Under the pieces are notes generated by a model that was given only the letters and a program-made list of their open reading frames with translations, made no database searches and was not told the origin of the DNA. Shown in pieces: positions 19,878 to 59,179 of a stretch of DNA of 64,000 nt. The stretch comes from Escherichia coli (lineage in GTDB: Bacteria > Pseudomonadota > Gammaproteobacteria > Enterobacterales > Enterobacteriaceae), in NCBI RefSeq assembly GCF_024502345.1, contig NZ_JALDNN010000001.1, one strand, 5' to 3'. Each line of letters starts with the position of its first letter. Position 1 is the first letter of the stretch. The position numbers and the translations under genes were made by a program.

Positions 19878-21692
19878 TCACTTCTTACATAGAATGCTGG
19901 GTTTTACTCCGTACTCAACACATGCACTCAAAAATGTATTTATAAGCCAGATTAGCTGAACAGTATAAGGTTTGGCTGACTGATTTCTCTTGATGATTTC
20001 CACCTCATCGATTAACATTTTTTTTCTTAAAAATGGAGCAGCTAATATTAACTCCCTACTAGTTTTCGGACTCTCATTAATTTTGTCAAGAGCTAACTCA
20101 ATGTCATTCCTGGAAGTGTCAATTGGTCTAATTCTACTAATCTGCGTTTGTAAATATTTTGAAGACCATTCATTATCATATTTATCAAGGTAAAGTTCTT
20201 TTGGTGAATGTAATCTGCCAATATTTTTTAAAGCTTGACTTATAACTTCATGAAATTTACTGGCGCCATAGCTCTCTTTTTTAATATATTTAGAATGAAT
20301 AAACTTTATGGATGGATTTCCTGTCGTGATATCCAGCACAATATGATCGGCCCACTCATCATTCATATCATCACAAATTACAATAGCATCTTTATTTGAA
20401 TAGATATTCTCCACTCGTCTAAATAGCGATCTCACTGGAAATCTTTTAATATTTTCTGGATAAGATTGTTTGTCATCTTTCTCTTTTTCCGATCTGATTG
20501 TTGAAAAATCAAAGCTATCATCAAAAACGGACAGGAAAATATTCAAATTATTTAACATCGTTTTATCTTCAAAACACGAACGACCATGATAGCAATATTG
20601 GGGGGAATCGAAGGTTATAGTGAATGGCTTAAACTTGTTAATATATTTACTAAGCGACATTAACTGAGAACCATTTTCACTAATCATTATACCATCGAGA
20701 TATTTGGATACTATAGTCACAACCTTAGTATTGAATCTCAGACGACATTTGAATTTGAATCTTAAATTGGTTAGCGTTTCACCATCTAAGAAATATGATG
20801 ATTTAAATCCATTGAAAAATTTGTCAAGTTCAACAGAACTTAACGTCACCGTTCCATGAGGCACATTTTTTGTTAGTGTAAAAGTATGGGACGTGCCACG
20901 CACCATATCATCCAACTCGCTAAGATCTATAAAAATAGCTTTTGGCTTGACTTTTTTTGCTAATAATTCACTCAAAGTAATAGGGGAAGAGAAACCTGCC
21001 ATTAGCTTACTTGACAAAGAGGCTGTGTTAGATAATTCATTTACTGTAGCTATTGCCCATGAGCAGAAATTAAAAAAATCCACTTTTTTATCTTTGTAGC
21101 CTATTCGTGAAGTATTTGGTGTTAAAGTAAATATGTCATTTCCTGTCTTGACTCTAAATGTCCCTGGAATTGAACGTCCAGTCGTGTTAGGAGAAAGAAT
21201 GCCACTTAGATTTTTTGCTTCCACTGTTCTATTTCTTATCACTGAATCTGACAGTGACATATTCCTCATGCTAATTTTTTCATACTCAGGATTCAGCCTT
21301 CCATTAAAATTTGAAAATTTATCAAACTCAAAGTATTCTATGAACCTTTCCAACTCGCTTTCAATTGCATCAACATTTTTCTTCGAAATTATTAAAAAAT
21401 CCTGAACCTCCAAGATCATTAGATACGCATACTTGCTTTCTGAAATGCTAGTGCCTTGTAGAAATGAAGGCTCTTCTAGAACTTTAAAAGACACCAAAGA
21501 GTAAGTTAAATTCCCATTATCTACAACAACTTCAGATTTAATTTTATTTATAAGAAAGACACCATCTTTTATCGAGGATATGCTTCTAAATAGATTTTTT
21601 ATTTTATTTCTAGATAAAGGTTTTTTTATCTTAAAAAATTGTGCATTTTTTGATAAAATTAAATCATTGATACTGAAAATATATTTAGTCAC
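19878..21692 (-). CDS. Orphan AT-rich protein of unknown function (604 aa), prophage hotspot cargo
   Basis: Long uninterrupted ORF in very AT-rich DNA; GTG start 8 nt after AAGGA; no Walker A, no YxDD box, no HNH seen by eye; C-terminal segment AIVICDDMNDEWADHIVLD...IKFIHSKY could be a nuclease-like acidic/basic cluster. Confidence 0.6.
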   Translation of the reverse strand: MTKYIFSINDLILSKNAQFFKIKKPLSRNKIKNLFRSISSIKDGVFLINKIKSEVVVDNGNLTYSLVSFKVLEEPSFLQGTSISESKYAYLMILEVQDFLIISKKNVDAIESELERFIEYFEFDKFSNFNGRLNPEYEKISMRNMSLSDSVIRNRTVEAKNLSGILSPNTTGRSIPGTFRVKTGNDIFTLTPNTSRIGYKDKKVDFFNFCSWAIATVNELSNTASLSSKLMAGFSSPITLSELLAKKVKPKAIFIDLSELDDMVRGTSHTFTLTKNVPHGTVTLSSVELDKFFNGFKSSYFLDGETLTNLRFKFKCRLRFNTKVVTIVSKYLDGIMISENGSQLMSLSKYINKFKPFTITFDSPQYCYHGRSCFEDKTMLNNLNIFLSVFDDSFDFSTIRSEKEKDDKQSYPENIKRFPVRSLFRRVENIYSNKDAIVICDDMNDEWADHIVLDITTGNPSIKFIHSKYIKKESYGASKFHEVISQALKNIGRLHSPKELYLDKYDNEWSSKYLQTQISRIRPIDTSRNDIELALDKINESPKTSRELILAAPFLRKKMLIDEVEIIKRNQSAKPYTVQLIWLINTFLSACVEYGVKPSILCKK

Positions 21693-29042: not shown

Positions 29043-29069
29043 AAAAAATAAGCCCGTGTAAGGGAGATT
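29043..29069. other. attR: Probable P2 attachment core (prophage/host junction) overlapping the cyaR 3' end
   Basis: AAAAAATAAGCCCGTGTAAGGGAGATT matches the 27-nt P2 att core as recalled; lies exactly where phage sequence gives way to host backbone. Confidence 0.5.
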
Positions 29070-29129
29070 ACACAGGCTAAGGAGGTGGTTCCTGGTACAG
29101 CTAGCATTTTATGGGTTATGTTTTTCAGC
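29043..29129 (-). ncRNA. cyaR: CyaR (RyeE) Hfq-dependent sRNA
   Basis: Minus strand reads GCTGAAAAACATAACCCATAAAATGCTAGCTGTACCAGGAACCACCTCCTTAGCC...terminator hairpin and U-run; sits between yegQ and the ogr end as in K-12. Confidence 0.8.
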
Positions 29130-29213
29130 GAAACGGATGATAACCTTAATAAATGCAGCTGTATGTGATCGGTTTCTAAGAATTTTCCATCCGGGAAAAA
29201 TAATCGAAATTAA

Positions 29214-43199: not shown

Positions 43200-43340
43200 A
43201 CGCTGAAACGGGAAAGCCCCTCCCGAGGAAGGGGCCATAAATAAGGAAAGGGTCATGATGAAGATACTCATCATCGTGGTGCTCTTAGTGATTAGCTACC
43301 CAGCATACTAAGACTACCAGGGCGGGGGAAACCCCGCTCT
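43200..43340 (-). ncRNA. Sib antisense sRNA, unit 1 (approximate boundaries)
   Basis: Sib RNAs are about 140 nt and fully antisense to ibs; the hairpin upstream of ibs on the plus strand would serve as the minus-strand terminator. Confidence 0.45.
43255..43311 (+). CDS. Ibs-family type I toxin peptide (MMKILIIVVLLVISYPAY)
   Basis: Tiny hydrophobic ORF with SD-like aaggaaaggg upstream, in repeat unit 1. Confidence 0.7.
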   Translation: MMKILIIVVLLVISYPAY

Positions 43341-43527
43341 ACCCTCACTCCTGAAAGTATGCCTTCACGTTCAGAATGTCAATCCGCAGGCTTTGCAGTC
43401 TGCGATCCTGCCAGCAAATATTCTTTGCGAGACGTTACGCAATAATCACAGAGGAAACTATTTTGTTCACGCGTTAGCGATAGACTGAATTCAGGGCGAA
43501 AGGAGGTAAGCCGACGATTTCAGCGGG

Positions 43528-43668
43528 ACGCTGAAACGGGAAAGCCCCTCCCGAGGAAGGGGCCTTAAATAAGGAAAGGGTCATGATGAAGTGGATCATC
43601 ATCGTGGTGCTCTTAGTCATAAGCTTCCCGGCTTACTAAGACTACCAGGGCGGGGGAAACCCCGCTCT
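43528..43668 (-). ncRNA. Sib antisense sRNA, unit 2 (approximate boundaries)
   Basis: As unit 1. Confidence 0.45.
43583..43639 (+). CDS. Ibs-family type I toxin peptide (MMKWIIIVVLLVISFPAY)
   Basis: Same architecture in repeat unit 2. Confidence 0.7.
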   Translation: MMKWIIIVVLLVISFPAY

Positions 43669-43855
43669 ACCCTCACTCCTGAAAGTATGCCTTCACGATA
43701 AGATTGTCAATCTGCAGGCTTTGCAGTCTGCGATCCTGCCAGCAAATATTCTTTGCGAGACGTTACGCAATAATCACACTGGAAACTATTTTATCCGCAA
43801 GTCAGCGATAGACTGCATGCATGGCGAAAGGAGGTAAGCCGACGATTTCAGCGGG

Positions 43856-43996
43856 ATGCTGAAACGGGAAAGCCCCTCCCGAGGAAGGGGCCTTAAATAA
43901 GAAAAGGGTTATGATGAAGCACGTCATCATACTGGTGATACTCTTAGTGATTAGCTTCCAGGCTTACTAAGAACACCAGGGGGAGGGGAAACCTCT
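43856..43996 (-). ncRNA. sibA: Sib antisense sRNA, unit 3 (approximate boundaries)
   Basis: As unit 1. Confidence 0.45.
43911..43970 (+). CDS. ibsA: Ibs-family type I toxin peptide (MMKHVIILVILLVISFQAY)
   Basis: Same architecture in repeat unit 3; closest to the K-12 IbsA sequence as recalled. Confidence 0.7.
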   Translation: MMKHVIILVILLVISFQAY

Positions 43997-44189
43997 CCCT
44001 AACCCTCACTCCTGAAATTATGTCACTCCGCCCTTAGTGTCAATCGACGGCTCTCCGTTCTTGCGAGGCGAATAGCAAAATTTTCTGCGCCGCCGGGACT
44101 AATTCTGAAAGTTTCTTCGTTTGCTCTTATTTCATTATTGCAGTCGGTATGATACCGGACCTCAATAATTCTCTAAGAAAGGATTTCTT

Positions 44190-44849
44190 ATGAGCGAACA
44201 AATCACGTTTGCCACCAGCGATTTTGCCAGTAACCCGGAACCACGTTGCCCCTGCATTCTGCTGCTGGATGTTTCTGGCTCGATGAGCGGCAGACCTATT
44301 AATGAACTTAACGCCGGATTGGTTACCTTTCGTGATGAACTGCTTGCTGATCCGCTGGCTTTAAAAAGAGTGGAACTCGGCATTGTGACGTTCGGCCCGG
44401 TGCATGTGGAACAACCCTTTACCAGCGCCGCTAACTTTTTCCCGCCCATCCTGTTTGCCCTGGGGGATACGCCTATGGGGGCCGCCATTACCAAAGCCCT
44501 GGATATGGTAGAGGAGCGGAAACGTGAGTACCGCGCAAATGGTATTTCGTATTATCGCCCGTGGATTTTCCTGATCACCGATGGCGCTCCAACCGATGAG
44601 TGGCAGGCTGCCGCCAACAAAGTGTTTCAGGGGGAAGAAGATAAGAAGTTTGCCTTCTTTTCCATCGGTGTTCAGGGGGCGGATATGAAGACGCTGGCAC
44701 AAATCAGCGTTCGTCAGCCTTTGCCACTGCAGGGATTACAATTCCGTGAACTGTTTAGCTGGTTATCCAGTTCGCTGCGTTCGGTTTCCCGCTCCACGCC
44801 GGGAACGGAAGTTGTGCTGGAAGCGCCAAAAGGCTGGACGTCAGTGTGA
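44190..44849 (+). CDS. yegL: von Willebrand factor A domain protein YegL (219 aa)
   Basis: 219 aa; vWA MIDAS-like DxSxS motif [11 protein letters not shown]. Confidence 0.9.
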
Positions 44850-45606
44850 GCTGGCGTCTGGTTTATGCATCCGCTGTTGGAACGTCGCACATTAGCGCTG
44901 ATTTACCTTGTCAGGATGCCTGCCAGATGCAGGTTGCCTGGCTAAATGACCAGCAGCCATTACTGGTGATGTTCCTTGCTGATGGCGCAGTAGCGTTTCG
45001 CAGGGAGGAGAAGGCGCGAAGCTCGCCGTCAATGAAGCGATGACGTTTATGGTGCAAAAAGTACAGGACGGTGAATTGGGGCTTAATGATGTCCTCGCCA
45101 CAAATATGGTACTGACCATTCGTCAACGACTTTTTGCCGAGGCAGAAGCCAAAGCATTAGCAGTTCGCGATTTTGCCTGCACGTTTCTGGGATTGATTTC
45201 ATCGGCTAACGGCACATTGATTATGCAAATTGGCGACGGCGGTGTAGTGGTGGATTTTGGTCACGGTCTGCAATTACCGCTTACGCCGATGGTGGGTGAA
45301 TATGCCAATATGACGCATTTCATTACCGATGAAGATGCCGTTTCCAGACTGGAAACTTTCACCAGCACTGAGCGTGTGCATAAAGTTGCAGCATTTACGG
45401 ATGGTATCCAGCGACTGGCGTTAAATATGTTGGATAATTCTCCGCATGTGCCTTTCTTTACCCCTTTTTTCAATGGACTGGCGGCAGCAACGCAGGAACA
45501 GCTCGATTTATTACCTGAATTGTTAAAGCAGTTTTTGTCCAGCCCGGCGGTAAACGAGCGTACCGATGATGATAAAACGTTGGCACTGGCGCTGTGGTTA
45601 CCATGA
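44846..45606 (+). pseudogene. yegK: PP2C-like phosphatase gene yegK/pphC, split by a frameshift into 65-aa and 188-aa ORFs
   Basis: ORFs 44846-45043 and 45040-45606 lie in different frames; together they span 761 nt, not a multiple of 3. Confidence 0.6.
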
Positions 45607-49041: not shown

Positions 49042-49890
49042 ATGTATACCCTGAACTGGCAGCCGCCGTATGACTGGTCGTGGATGTTGGGATTTCTCGC
49101 CGCCCGTGCAGTGAGTGGTGTGGAAACGGTAGCTGAGGATTATTATGCCCGTAGTCTGGCGGTGGGCGAATATCGCGGCGTGGTGACTGCTATTCCGGAT
49201 ATAGCCCGCCATACTCTGCACATAAATTTAAGTGCAGGTTTAGAACCCGTTGCCGCTGAGTGTCTGGCGAAAATGAGCCGCCTGTTTGATCTGCAATGTA
49301 ACCCGCAGATTGTTAACGGTGCGTTGGGCAAGTTAGGCGCGGCGCGGCCCGGATTGCGTTTACCCGGCTGTATTGATGCTTTTGAGCAGGGTGTGCGGGC
49401 GATTTTAGGCCAACTGGTGAGCGTGGCGATGGCGGCAAAATTGACTGCCAAAGTTGTACAGCTTTATGGCGAACGGCTGGATGATTTTCCGGAGTATATC
49501 TGCTTCCCCACGCCTCAGCGGCTGGCAGCAGCCGACCCGCAGGCATTAAAAGCGTTAGGCATGCCGTTGAAACGGGCAGAGGCACTGATTCATCTGGCAA
49601 ATGCGGCGCTGGAGGGCAGCTTACCAATGACAATTCCGGGCGATGTGGAGCAGGCGATGAAAACGCTGCAAACTTTTCCGGGTATCGGGCGCTGGACGGC
49701 GAATTATTTCGCTTTGCGTGGCTGGCAGGCGAAAGATGTTTTCCTGCCGGATGATTATCTGATTAAACAGCGGTTTCCGGGAATGACACCAGCACAAATC
49801 CGCCGTTATGCCGAACGCTGGAAGCCCTGGCGTTCTTATGCGCTGTTGCATATCTGGTATACGGAAGGCTGGCAACCAGACGAAGCATGA
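49042..49890 (+). CDS. alkA: 3-methyladenine DNA glycosylase II AlkA (282 aa)
   Basis: 282 aa; helix-hairpin-helix glycosylase signature near FPGIGRWTANYFALRG. Confidence 0.95.
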   Translation: MYTLNWQPPYDWSWMLGFLAARAVSGVETVAEDYYARSLAVGEYRGVVTAIPDIARHTLHINLSAGLEPVAAECLAKMSRLFDLQCNPQIVNGALGKLGAARPGLRLPGCIDAFEQGVRAILGQLVSVAMAAKLTAKVVQLYGERLDDFPEYICFPTPQRLAAADPQALKALGMPLKRAEALIHLANAALEGSLPMTIPGDVEQAMKTLQTFPGIGRWTANYFALRGWQAKDVFLPDDYLIKQRFPGMTPAQIRRYAERWKPWRSYALLHIWYTEGWQPDEA

Positions 49891-49998: not shown

Positions 49999-52900
49999 TC
50001 AGTTAATCGCGAAATAACTGCTATTCACCAGCAAATCCAGCGGTTGGGAATCGGCAATCACATCACCATAAATCAGATCGACGCCGATGCCAGAAAGCGT
50101 ATCCATCACTAAGGGTAAAACGACTGGCCCGGCGATGGTTTTCATCCCGAGTCGCTGAGCGTGCCCCTGAATAATCGTAATCAGCATCTCATCCATCAAA
50201 TTACCCTGCACGTTGGCGCATAACTCACCATCAAGTAGCAGGTAATCTGCCATATTCGCTTTCAGCGAGTTGAAGATTTGCAGATCGCGGCCCACCTGGC
50301 TGAGCACTATCCGACATCCCGCCAGCCGCAGTTTTTGCACGCTTACTGCGTGATCTAAAATCGCTTCAGCCGGAATAATCAGATGTAATAACCGTGGTGG
50401 TAGAGGGCTATTTTCCAGCTGCTCAAGCAGTTCATTCACCAGCGTGGCGCTACTCAAACCGGCAACGGAAAGAGGGAGGGCGATGCTTATGCCTTTACTG
50501 GCAACCGCTTTTGCGGCCTGCTGGAAAAATTCGTGGAATACCCGTCGGTCAAGAGCATGGCTAAGTGCCGGATCGCTGAAGCTACGACGAAATTTTTGTT
50601 CATCAATAATCTCGCCTTCGCAACTCCAGAGCTTAAGTGAAATCAGCCACAAATTACGCGCTTCCGGGATCCGCGGCGAAGCGACACCGTGGGCGATCAT
50701 CATCAACTGATTCTCTTTAATCATCCGCCACTGTTCATCAAGCGACATCGCCGCCCGTTCGCTATGTGCGGCAGCTTGCTGTGGTTCGTAAATCGTCACC
50801 CGGCCCCGGCCACCATTTTTGGAGGCATAACAGGCGATATCAGCCTGCGACATCACTTCAGCCGCCTGATGATTGTTGTCATCAATCAAGGTAATCCCGG
50901 CACTGGCACCTACCCGATGTACACGTCCTTCCCAGATAAAGTGATAGTCATTCACGGCACTGATAATGCGTGTAGCGATAAAACGCGCGCTTTCAACATT
51001 ACAGTCTGGTAGCAGCAGACCAAATTCATCCCCACCGAGTCGCGCCAGCACGTCGCTGGAACGCAGCATACTCAGCATTAACGACGCCAGTTCGCGCAGC
51101 AAAGCGTCACCCGCCGCATGCCCGGCGCTGTCATTCACCGCTTTAAAGCGATCAAGATCGATAAACACCAGGGCATGTCGCTGATGTGTACTGTTTACCG
51201 TTTGCAGCAGGATACGCAGTTGTTTCTCAAAACTGGCGCGATTGGCGAGATGCGTCAGTGCATCATGGGAGGCGCTGTAGCTCAGCTGGCGCAGCATTTT
51301 GCGTGATTCGGTAACGTCCTGAATCACCAGAACCGAACCAATATTGCTGCCGTCCAGAGTACTTAACGGCGTAATACTGTAATGCACGTCGTAGCTGCCG
51401 CCGCTCCGGCAGTGCAACACCACATCTTGTTCAATCGCGGAACGTGAGGTGTCGGCACTGTAAATGTTCTCCATCAGGGGACCATTGTCGCCAAAGGTAA
51501 TATGCAACACCGTCAGGAGCGGAACACCTAATGCTTCTTCCTGCGTCCAGCCGCTCATCTTCTCCGCCACTGGATTCATAAAGGTAATTTTCATTGCCAT
51601 ATCAATACAGACCACGGCTTCGCCGATGGAGTCCAGCGTAATGTGCAGGCGCTCTTTTTCCTAAAACAATGCCTCGTTAAGCTGTTTCACTTCGGTCATA
51701 TCCATATTGATGCCGAGGAGACGTTCGACTTCGCCTTCTTTATTCAGTACCCGGTTGGCGAGGGCGCGGATATGGCGAATACCGTCTTTTACGGTAATGC
51801 GAAATTCCAGTTTAAAGGGCGAGCGTGATTGCAACGAATCACGAATCACTTTTTCGGCATGCTGGCGATCTTCCGGCAGCACGCACTCGTACCACACCTG
51901 CCAGTTCGGTTTGATATGTGGAGGAATTTCATACAGCTCGAACATCCGCTTATCCCAGCTAAAAACATTCGGTTTCAACTCCCACTCCCAGATGCCAATC
52001 CCGCCCGCTTCGTTAGACAGCGTGATGCGCTCCATCAGTTGCTGATTGACCTGTTCGGTGCGTTTTAGCTCGTTAATGTCTTCAATCTGAGCGATAAAAT
52101 AGAGCGGCGTGCCATCCGTGTGGCGCACCAGTGAGACGGCAAGCAACGCCCAGACAACATCGCCATTGCGGTTGTAGTAGCGTTTTTCCATTGAATAGGT
52201 GTTTATTTCACCGCTTATCAGCTTTTCAACCTGTTGGAGATCTTTATTGAGATCCTCCGGCCAGGTCAGTTGCTGAAAGGTGAGTCCGCGCAGCTCTTCC
52301 TGACTGTACCCGAGAAACTGGCAGAGCGCTTTGTTGGTTTGCAGCCATTGTCCCTCGGTGCCCACTAACGCCATACCGATAGCGGAATATTCCATCGCGT
52401 TCCGAAAGCGGGTTTCGCTTTCGGAAATGTGTTTGCGTTCCGCACGAAAGGCATACATCACCATGGTCATGATGTTGGCGGGCAGCAGGATCAGCAAAAA
52501 CGGTAGCCACGGCATATGGCTCATCAGGTACGTACGCGGCGTAGCAAGCAGGGAGGGATCCGCGGCCATCATCAGCGACACCATCATCACCGTGGTAAGG
52601 AAGATCAAAAAGGCTTCCATTCGTGGCAGGCGCACGGCGCTCCACATCAACAGCACAATAATGAAAGTAAAAGGCCACGGCAGATACAGCATCGAAAGCC
52701 AGCTTAACGTCAGTGTGATGGCTAACGTGAGCAGCGACTCAAAAAGCAACCGTGGGTTGCGATGGCGCAGCAGATAGTGTGGTTTAAATAACAATCCCAG
52801 CGGCACCAGTGCCAGAGCGCCGATGGATTCTGACAGTACCCATATCAAAAATGCCCTGAGAGGATCGTCTCCGGGCGTCAGCAGGACAACCAGACCCCCC

Positions 52901-53316
52901 CCCAACAGAGGCGGAACAATGGCGCTGCCGAGTGCCAGACGCAGCCAGTCAGCCAGATTTTGCAAGGGGTTATACCACGGCAGCAATTTACGTAGCAGCA
53001 CTGCCCCGACCACGGCTTCAACCATATTGATGGTCGTCCAGGTCATGTTCAGCGAGCTGGTGGAAAAAAGCAGGATGGATGCGGCGATATTTCCCAGCGA
53101 ACAGCTCAGCGCAATTCCCGGCCACATGCGCCCGGCATGGCGATAAAACGCCACCATCATGATGGACGTCGGGAACCACAGTGGGGCGAGTTGGGTGCCA
53201 AACTGCGAAAGCTCAAGCGAGAAAAGGGTAAAGATAAACGAGACTAAACCTAAACTGACCAGGTGAAGCAGCGGGTGGGGCAGGGCAATTAATACATGCT
53301 GTGATTGTTTGCTCAT
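49999..53316 (-). pseudogene. dgcE: Diguanylate cyclase DgcE (YegE) reading frame, interrupted by one in-frame amber (TAG) codon
   Basis: Minus-strand ORFs 51661-53316 (551 aa: membrane N-terminus and PAS) and 49999-51615 (538 aa: PAS, GGDEF with RLGGDEFGLLL, EAL) are in the same frame; only stop between them is TAG at 51661-51663; 551+1+15+538 = 1105 codons. Confidence 0.7.
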
Positions 53317-53633: not shown

Positions 53634-54275
53634 ATGACTGATCAGTCTCATCAGTGCGTCATTATCGGTATCGCTGGCGCATCGGCTTCCGGCAAGAGTC
53701 TTATTGCCAGTACCCTTTATCGTGAATTACGTGAGCAAGTCGGTGATGAACACATCGGCGTAATTCCCGAAGACTGCTATTACAAAGATCAAAGCCATCT
53801 GTCGATGGAAGAACGCGTTAAGACCAACTACGACCATCCCAGCGCGATGGATCACAGCCTGTTGCTTGAGCATTTACAAGCGTTGAAACGCGGCTCGGCA
53901 ATTGACCTGCCGGTTTACAGCTATGTTGAACATACGCGTATGAAAGAAACGGTGACGGTTGAGCCGAAGAAGGTCATCATTCTCGAAGGCATTTTATTGC
54001 TGACGGATGCGCGTTTGCGTGACGAACTTAACTTCTCCATTTTCGTTGATACCCCGCTGGATATCTGCCTGATGCGCCGCATCAAGCGTGACGTTAACGA
54101 GCGTGGGCGTTCAATGGATTCCGTGATGGCGCAATATCAAAAAACCGTGCGCCCGATGTTCCTGCAATTCATTGAGCCTTCTAAACAATATGCGGACATT
54201 ATCGTGCCGCGCGGCGGGAAAAACCGCATCGCGATCGATATATTGAAAGCGAAAATAAGTCAGTTCTTTGAATAA
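53634..54275 (+). CDS. udk: Uridine/cytidine kinase Udk (213 aa)
   Basis: Start at [22 protein letters not shown] with P-loop; 213 aa. Confidence 0.95.
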
Positions 54276-58699: not shown

Positions 58700-59167
58700 A
58701 GTAAGTACAAAACCTATTCGTTGTATGACAAATGTCACAATTCGATCATGGATAAATCGGGGCAAAAATGCAATGTTGCAGCACTATTTATCTCATATTA
58801 TTTGAGGGTAATAACCTCACATTATCCCTGAATTAAAAGTGGTAATAATAAAACATTATTTAAGAAATATCGCATGTGGAGACACTATATTAAATATTGT
58901 CAACCTAAAGAAACTCCTAAAAACCATATTGAATGACACTTAATATAATTCTTAAAAATAGCCAATTACCGAATTGTTATCTTGCCTGCTATTCCGTTAG
59001 CTGTAACACTTCCTCCTGCATTATTGGAAAGCCAATATTCAATTACCATAATGTCACCTTATATTCGGAAGTTAATTTCCGTAATAACCCTTTCTCATCA
59101 ACGACTGCATGCTGAGAGGGTGTGAAAAATTAAACTAAATCAGTGTATTGGTAGCTAAAAAGCCAGG

Positions 59168-59179
59168 GGCGGTAGCGTG
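59168..59179 (+). promoter_or_regulatory. ops element (GGCGGTAGCGTG) within a JUMPstart-like leader upstream of wza
   Basis: Exact 12-mer GGCGGTAGCGTG about 180 nt upstream of the wza start codon. Confidence 0.6.

Follow-up and report, generated by a model that had tools for sequence, protein, structure and literature searches.

We begin by considering DgcE (YegE), the top trigger of the curli and cellulose matrix in E. coli. It is the major diguanylate cyclase of the species, and deletion of dgcE brings c-di-GMP to a very low level (PMC13031359). The domain structure of the K-12 protein has been dissected on the chromosome: strains that have lost either the whole of MASE1 or all three PAS domains in frame behave as nulls in CsgD and matrix output, with the proteins still expressed, and a mutation of the GGDEF active site gives a null phenotype likewise (PMC6510439). 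MASE1 is the contact site of the activating GTPase system RdcA/RdcB, and it also confers membrane-dependent processive proteolysis on the protein (PMC6510439).

Natural loss of the gene is also on record. As cited in PMC11327459, Povolotsky & Hengge (2016) give dgcE as an annotated pseudogene for nine pathogenic strains of E. coli, and report dgcE pseudogenes in EHEC, EPEC and EAEC. The complete genome of strain 2013C-3513 (NZ_CP027555.1) has its dgcE annotated as "frameshifted". In Shigella flexneri, where dgcE has a stop at about residue 366, over-expression of the interrupted gene raised c-di-GMP, and deletion of the gene lowered c-di-GMP in a strain without the four intact cyclases (PMC11327459). 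We describe below a dgcE that is interrupted in a different way, and compare it with each of these cases.

The dgcE locus and its interruption

The window, by which we mean the whole 64-kb stretch of DNA analysed, carries dgcE between alkA and udk (Table 1). This gene order, alkA(+) - dgcE(-) - udk(+), matches the annotation of both K-12 and strain TC24, which places the gene at the conserved position of the DgcE orthologue. Frame-wise translation of the coding region gives 1105 codons and a terminal stop (3318 nt), with codon 552 as the sole internal stop. The read-through length is that of dgcE in K-12 MG1655 (b2067, 2143266..2146583, 3318 nt) and of the dgcE annotated in TC24; the initial annotation had given 1105 codons as the length of the intact K-12 protein, and b2067 bears this out. 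In Pfam the read-through product has the architecture of a DgcE orthologue, namely MASE1, three PAS domains, GGDEF and a degenerate EAL.

Table 1. Features of dgcE and its surroundings, with positions counted in the window
Feature	Codons or residues	Position	Strand	Basis or remark
dgcE (yegE) coding region, one interruption		49999..53316	-	ORF frames, NCBIfam NF007298 halves, Pfam architecture
udk, flank of dgcE		53634..54275	+	
alkA, flank of dgcE, convergent		49042..49890	+	
N-terminal ORF, MASE1-PAS-PAS	551 aa	51664..53316	-	ORF list, Pfam, NF007298
MASE1	19-294	52435..53262	-	Pfam
G9 homopolymer, in frame (protein LLGGGL)	138-141	52895..52903	-	
PAS1	303-419	52060..52410	-	Pfam
PAS2	452-544	51685..51963	-	Pfam
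Amber codon TAG (ancestral CAG, Gln)	552	51661..51663	-	CAG in all 18 comparison sequences
Distal part, predicted untranslated or restart-dependent	553-1105	49999..51660	-	Translation, Pfam, NF007298
PAS3	555-672	51301..51654	-	Pfam
GTG (Val), nearest in-frame candidate for restart, 45 nt past TAG	568	51613..51615	-	Anti-SD -3.0 kcal/mol, weak
ATG (Met), first in-frame ATG after the stop	573	51598..51600	-	Anti-SD -2.2 kcal/mol, no Shine-Dalgarno
ATG (Met), best ribosome-binding-site look-alike	587	51556..51558	-	GGAG with 3-nt spacer, -6.6 kcal/mol; costs first 32 PAS3 residues
GGDEF domain, RSSD I-site and GGDEF motif (51022..51036) intact	682-838	50803..51273	-	Pfam
Degenerate EAL	898-1088	50053..50625	-	Pfam
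Second private change, TCC (Ser) vs GCC (Ala) in all relatives	1090	50047..50049	-	Alignment of relatives

The ORF list breaks this region into two minus-strand frames, 51661..53316 (551 aa, ATG start) and 49999..51615 (538 aa, GTG start), which are in the same frame. Against the NCBIfam equivalog NF007298 (DgcE; PRK09776), the upstream ORF covers profile positions 1-551 with 1003.5 bits and the downstream ORF covers positions 569-1111 with 985.1 bits. Since the two match complementary parts of one profile, they are the two halves of one gene and no chance pair of ORFs. The curated cut-off of the profile is 1135 bits, and each half alone falls below it, so that no single uninterrupted protein reaches it and the dgcE of the window is to be classed as a pseudogene of the DgcE family, not as a functional member.

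The reading that a single in-frame amber codon splits dgcE, made in the initial annotation from the ORFs, therefore stands: the TAG occupies 51663..51661, both ORFs share one frame, and there is no other internal stop. It was right as well that the N-terminal product would lack GGDEF and EAL, Pfam giving only MASE1-PAS-PAS for it. The description of the break as lying between a sensor half and a GGDEF-EAL half is correct in that the gene is split, and has to be amended as to where; by the Pfam boundaries, codon 552 falls in the short linker between PAS2 and PAS3. One PAS domain thus stays with the distal half. The A-site and the RxxD I-site of the GGDEF domain are both present in that half (...LRSSDVLARLGGDEF..., with the GGDEF motif at residues 761-765), and because the distal half is otherwise intact, RSSD and GGDEF included, the lesion fits a recent event.

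In comparison with the K-12 protein (YegE, b2067; Pfiffer et al. 2019, PMC6510439), the locus, the length and the domain order are the same, and GGDEF and RSSD are intact. The two genes are 98.7% identical in nucleotide sequence, and their products differ by 13 amino-acid substitutions apart from the stop. The difference that matters is codon 552, which is TAG here and not CAG; under normal decoding, it makes a single polypeptide with MASE1, the PAS region and GGDEF impossible.

Origin of the amber codon

On the minus strand, 51680..51640 reads ...AAC GAG GCA TTG TTT TAG GAA AAA GAG CGC.... The sole change from the ancestral codon is C to T on the coding strand (G to A at plus-strand position 51663), which turns CAG into TAG and gives Q552*. 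The ancestral state rests on 18 comparison sequences, all with CAG in this place: K-12, TC24, seven close relatives (contigs that encode exactly the YegI protein of the window and cover codon 552) and nine genomes with the AsmA allele of the window, the last being common genomes in which dgcE is intact. A comparison with related strains had been recommended in the initial annotation, and its outcome is a sense codon in every one of them, the TAG being private to the window.

Larger collections give the same picture. A 61-mer centred on the TAG finds a match in 4685 of 5426 complete E. coli genomes, with none at 100% identity; neither the GTDB species representatives (one genome per species) nor the JGI metagenome contigs contain a 22-mer identical to the one that spans the TAG; and no gene called in public assemblies is on record with the exact 551-aa product.

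The closest relative (L004, GCA_050022275.1) has only three differences from the window between 35603 and 53461, a distance of about 18 kb. They are a synonymous change in alkA at 49131, Ala1090Ser in dgcE at 50049, and Gln552 to stop at 51663. The other relatives side with L004 at all three sites, from which it follows that the window has the derived states. With so few differences over such a distance, the stop is taken to be of recent origin. On these comparisons, Q552* is a private, derived and recent G:C to A:T transition. Deamination at a Dcm (CCWGG) hot spot was considered and rejected, the mutated C lying in TTTCAGGA, which is no Dcm site. Rfam places no RNA family at or near the TAG.

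Could the TAG be a base error of sequencing or assembly, in a strain whose true codon is CAG and whose dgcE is whole? The TAG is a singleton, absent from every other sequence compared, as an error would be. The quality of the surrounding sequence argues the other way: the window departs from L004 at only three private sites over about 18 kb, which points to a high-quality consensus, and the surrounding 24 kb hold no unexplained frameshift or stop. Of the 14 genes compared with TC24 in 40-64 kb, 12 are intact. Apart from dgcE only pphC has a lesion, the loss of 1 bp after 44989, and this loss recurs in three relatives (L002, L004 and L006); being common to three independent assemblies, it is real. 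Substitution errors that create a stop are rare besides, nonsense changes making up 3.5% of the possible SNPs in dgcE. We consider an artefact to be very unlikely.

The best identity of the window to complete E. coli genomes is 99.1% for dgcE and 98.3% for 40-64 kb. This low identity reflects a rare haplotype to the left of about 53.46 kb, to the right of which a common one follows. The same values had raised the suspicion of Shigella or another pseudogene-rich lineage, which is rejected: 40-64 kb contain no IS elements, and one of the closest relatives is a commensal. That relative (L006, LLYD01) is E. coli ccpm3962, which was isolated from a healthy preschooler and sequenced by Illumina HiSeq (PMC7133007). 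The relatives likewise show no trace of a laboratory origin.

Decoding of codon 552 and the fate of the distal half

We turn to what a ribosome would make of the interrupted message, and consider the decoding of the stop. The amber might be decoded by a supE-type suppressor tRNA, or by near-cognate readthrough with tRNA-Gln, to yield useful amounts of full-length DgcE of wild-type sequence. supE inserts Gln, and would thus restore the ancestral residue. Full-length products have also been reported from the nonsense-containing dgcQ and dgcN of Shigella (PMC11327459). Against such decoding, the 64-kb window contains no tRNA gene, and since the stop is conserved in none of the relatives (CAG in 18/18), codon 552 is no programmed readthrough site. 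Amber suppressor alleles are a feature of laboratory K-12, whereas the relatives of this strain are natural isolates, one of them a child's commensal; and basal readthrough of UAG in E. coli is low. Some full-length DgcE would come back through low-level natural readthrough, or through a suppressor tRNA encoded outside the window, and yet we regard a useful amount of it as extremely improbable.

We favour termination at codon 552 and loss of DgcE function, by the following route. A spontaneous G:C to A:T transition, recent and private to the strain, changed CAG (Gln) to TAG; a normal ribosome would stop at 552 and release a membrane fragment of 551 residues, with MASE1 and two PAS domains and no catalytic domain, and of the distal PAS-GGDEF-EAL part little or nothing would be translated. 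The output of DgcE requires in one chain MASE1 (for activation by RdcA/RdcB), the PAS region (for dimerisation) and the GGDEF active site. The amber allele should then act as a functional null for the DgcE -> PdeR -> DgcM -> MlrA -> csgD cascade, and cellular c-di-GMP and the production of curli/cellulose matrix would be expected to be lowered. Combining the observed mutation with a phenotype that we infer from the literature, we hold this private nonsense mutation to be most probably a loss-of-function allele of dgcE.

The alternative that has to be weighed most carefully is a split gene that keeps part of its function. Re-initiation at GTG568, at ATG573-580 or at ATG587 would give a soluble PAS3-GGDEF-EAL protein that still makes c-di-GMP and, having no MASE1, escapes both the membrane-dependent proteolysis and the control by RdcA and PMF, so that dgcE would be re-wired and not dead. 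E. coli does restart translation past nonsense codons, and the classical cases of re-initiation after an amber, in lacI and T4 rIIB, resemble the present one in having an in-frame start few codons past the nonsense codon. They differ in that the candidate starts in dgcE are without Shine-Dalgarno support. The initial annotation had proposed a restart at an "ATG" at 51613-51615. This codon is in fact a GTG, and the first in-frame ATG lies at Met573.

Past the stop, the in-frame starts are GTG568, ATG573, ATG575, ATG580, GTG583 and ATG587, at distances of 45-105 nt, one of them behind a GGAG. Predicted anti-Shine-Dalgarno pairing over the 20 nt upstream of each is negligible at the nearest ones: GTG568, ATG573, ATG575, ATG580 and GTG583 have no usable Shine-Dalgarno (anti-SD duplex -3.0 kcal/mol or weaker). 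All six lie inside PAS3, most of whose core would be retained by GTG568 only, and ATG587, the start behind the GGAG, would remove the first 32 residues of that domain. A search for a minus-strand sigma-70-like promoter within dgcE found none. Of the soluble PAS-GGDEF-EAL product suggested in the initial annotation, the domain content is right, the C-terminal piece being PAS-GGDEF-EAL; its translation lacks a usable Shine-Dalgarno at the five nearest starts and its transcription an internal promoter. Restart is possible in principle, and unsupported by these predictions.

The properties of such a product, if made, can be judged from the described proteins. The distal half is intact with its GGDEF and I-site, and removal of MASE1 stabilises DgcE and leaves it dimerising well by two-hybrid assay (PMC6510439). 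Chromosomal deletion of MASE1 is nevertheless null for CsgD and matrix although the protein is expressed (PMC6510439), and in the window only one PAS domain out of three would be left as well. Because a distal product would miss MASE1 and two PAS domains, the allele should be null for matrix control even so.

The closest parallel for partial function is the degenerate dgcE of Shigella flexneri 2457T (S2255), together with the other nonsense-interrupted Shigella DGC genes (JBC 2024, PMC11327459). In these genes a premature stop cuts the frame ahead of an intact GGDEF, with in-frame starts soon after, and the window dgcE shows this same arrangement. The Shigella dgcE lesion differs in being tied to an IS110-family insertion and a frameshift, while that of the window is a clean single-base nonsense change at 552 with no IS. 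The Shigella data come mainly from over-expression, and the bands seen for DgcE were unlike the predicted restart product (PMC11327459). We consider a re-wired cyclase unlikely. Given the premature-stop dgcE of Shigella flexneri, the word "null" may still be too strong for the total c-di-GMP pool.

Loss of function, which we prefer, should have no polar effect on any downstream gene, alkA being convergent. Downstream of the stop no convincing C-rich, G-poor Rho-utilisation stretch was found. The initial annotation had DgcE influencing curli and biofilm regulation, and DgcE does govern the curli and biofilm matrix (PMC6510439); a null allele predicts a strain with low c-di-GMP that is matrix-poor and more motile, with altered surface sensing. 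This is of practical use to those working with the strain and would be no surprise to a specialist. The amber allele alone raises no new question; it adds one more independent case to the known pattern of frequent loss of c-di-GMP enzymes, dgcE especially, from natural lineages of E. coli and Shigella.

A homopolymer tract and other lesions of dgcE

A second site of variation lies upstream in the same gene, at codons 138-141. Here K-12 dgcE reads GGGGGGTGT (LLGGVL), and the window has an in-frame G9. The relatives, and many assemblies, have variants of this tract, either in frame (G9+T or G10) or out of frame (G8+T or G9+C). Among the close relatives, L008 has G10 and is in frame, while L006 (G8+T) and L002 (G9+C) are out of frame and reach a stop at codon 146. 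A long in-frame homopolymer whose length varies between close relatives so as to switch the frame is one mark of a homopolymer contingency (phase-variable) locus, and slippage seems to make the tract a hot spot.

In this respect the window can be compared with the frameshifted dgcE of strains such as 2013C-3513. The same gene is naturally inactivated in both, and the window has the same poly-G tract allele. In the frameshifted strains, however, one G is lost, the stop falls at codon 146 and the lesion is widespread, whereas the tract of the window is in frame and its private lesion lies further downstream. Truncated products of other lengths turn up as well: a homologue search with the N-terminal half returned E. 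coli products of 357 aa (101 members) and 323 aa (275 members), numbers that are not a clean census. By these comparisons the amber allele is a new lesion in a known and common class of inactivated dgcE, with no second copy found in the collections searched.

The eight members of the narrow lineage carry three different dgcE lesions, which may be due to selection, to neutral decay or to reversible switching. A stronger reading can be put forward, in which natural E. coli would be under recurrent selection to lose dgcE or to re-wire it. The G9-G10 tract in the MASE1 region would then serve as a slippage-prone OFF switch, and in-frame strains would reach the same state by other lesions; or else the amber allele would yield a stable soluble PAS-GGDEF-EAL cyclase that is free of control by RdcA and the membrane potential. 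We think this stronger reading improbable. Two of the three private SNPs fall in dgcE, for which we estimate from the L004 comparison a chance of about 9%; as a count of SNPs, this excess is not statistically meaningful.

The two frameshift products of 145 aa that the out-of-frame tracts yield occur in the assembly collection in 310 and 38 index blocks, which puts the tract frameshift in hundreds of assemblies. They sit on dgcE backgrounds that are 97.0-98.6% identical to that of the window, some of them with a further stop at codon 445.

Homopolymer tract and private substitutions in dgcE

We begin by considering the run of nine G within dgcE, for which K-12 carries GGGGGGTGT at the same place. 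In the related public assemblies (contigs L002, L006, L008, L020-L025 and L027), the tract takes forms that keep the reading frame (G9+T or G10) and forms that shift it (G8+T or G9+C) and run into a stop at codon 146. The two frameshifted products occur in 310 and 38 index blocks of public assemblies, and the gene is annotated as "frameshifted" in one complete genome, 2013C-3513. The tract is likely a slippage hot spot, and it could possibly serve as a phase-variable switch.

A second change in dgcE, Ala1090Ser, is private to the window like the amber codon and lies downstream of that stop. Of the three private SNPs in 18 kb, two lie in dgcE, and C:G to A:T transversions account for two.

Features located in the window
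Feature	Position	Strand	Remarks
P2-like prophage	1-~29000
604-aa ORF	19878-21692	minus	opposite strand; tail-fibre and tail-sheath genes either side
Three tandem Sib antitoxin RNA/Ibs toxin copies	43240-44043	minus	Rfam SIB_RNA, 140-146 bits
pphC (yegK)	44846-45606	plus	PP2C phosphatase gene; adjoins kinase gene yegI
Ala1090Ser	50047-50049	minus	dgcE codon 1090; G to T on coding strand
G9 homopolymer	52895-52903	minus	dgcE codons 138-141
Haplotype switch	~53462 rightwards to ~57000		dgcE-udk intergenic region through asmA
JUMPstart element	59141-59179	plus	upstream of wza, colanic acid cluster

Haplotypes on the two sides of the switch

To the left of the haplotype switch, the window is almost identical to a rare lineage, with three differences in 18 kb from the window's closest relative (L004, GCA_050022275.1). 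To the right, clustered SNPs set it apart from that lineage, and its AsmA allele is very common (878 index blocks). From the sequence comparison, the switch looks like a recombination breakpoint adjoining the dgcE promoter region.

Within pphC, a 1-bp deletion after 44989 (GG to G) shifts the frame. Because this deletion is also present in contigs L002, L004 and L006, while being absent from L003, L005 and L007-L009, it is an older marker of the lineage than the dgcE amber codon.

Prophage and other elements

The prophage is inserted beside CyaR (29046-29131) and yegQ, a site where K-12 has only a cryptic P2 remnant. It contains genes for a replication endonuclease, portal, terminase, capsid, tail fibre, sheath, tape measure and D, and best matches E. 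coli O19:H7 730V1 (98.2% identity over 91% coverage). The 604-aa ORF sits at a P2 cargo hot spot and is a full-length PADLOC match to the candidate defence family PDC-S71 (E 1e-218); NCBIfam gives no family for it.

The Sib/Ibs array is placed between mdtA and yegL, with three copies in the window against apparently two in the relative L005. The colanic acid cluster has intact copies of wza, wzb and wzc.
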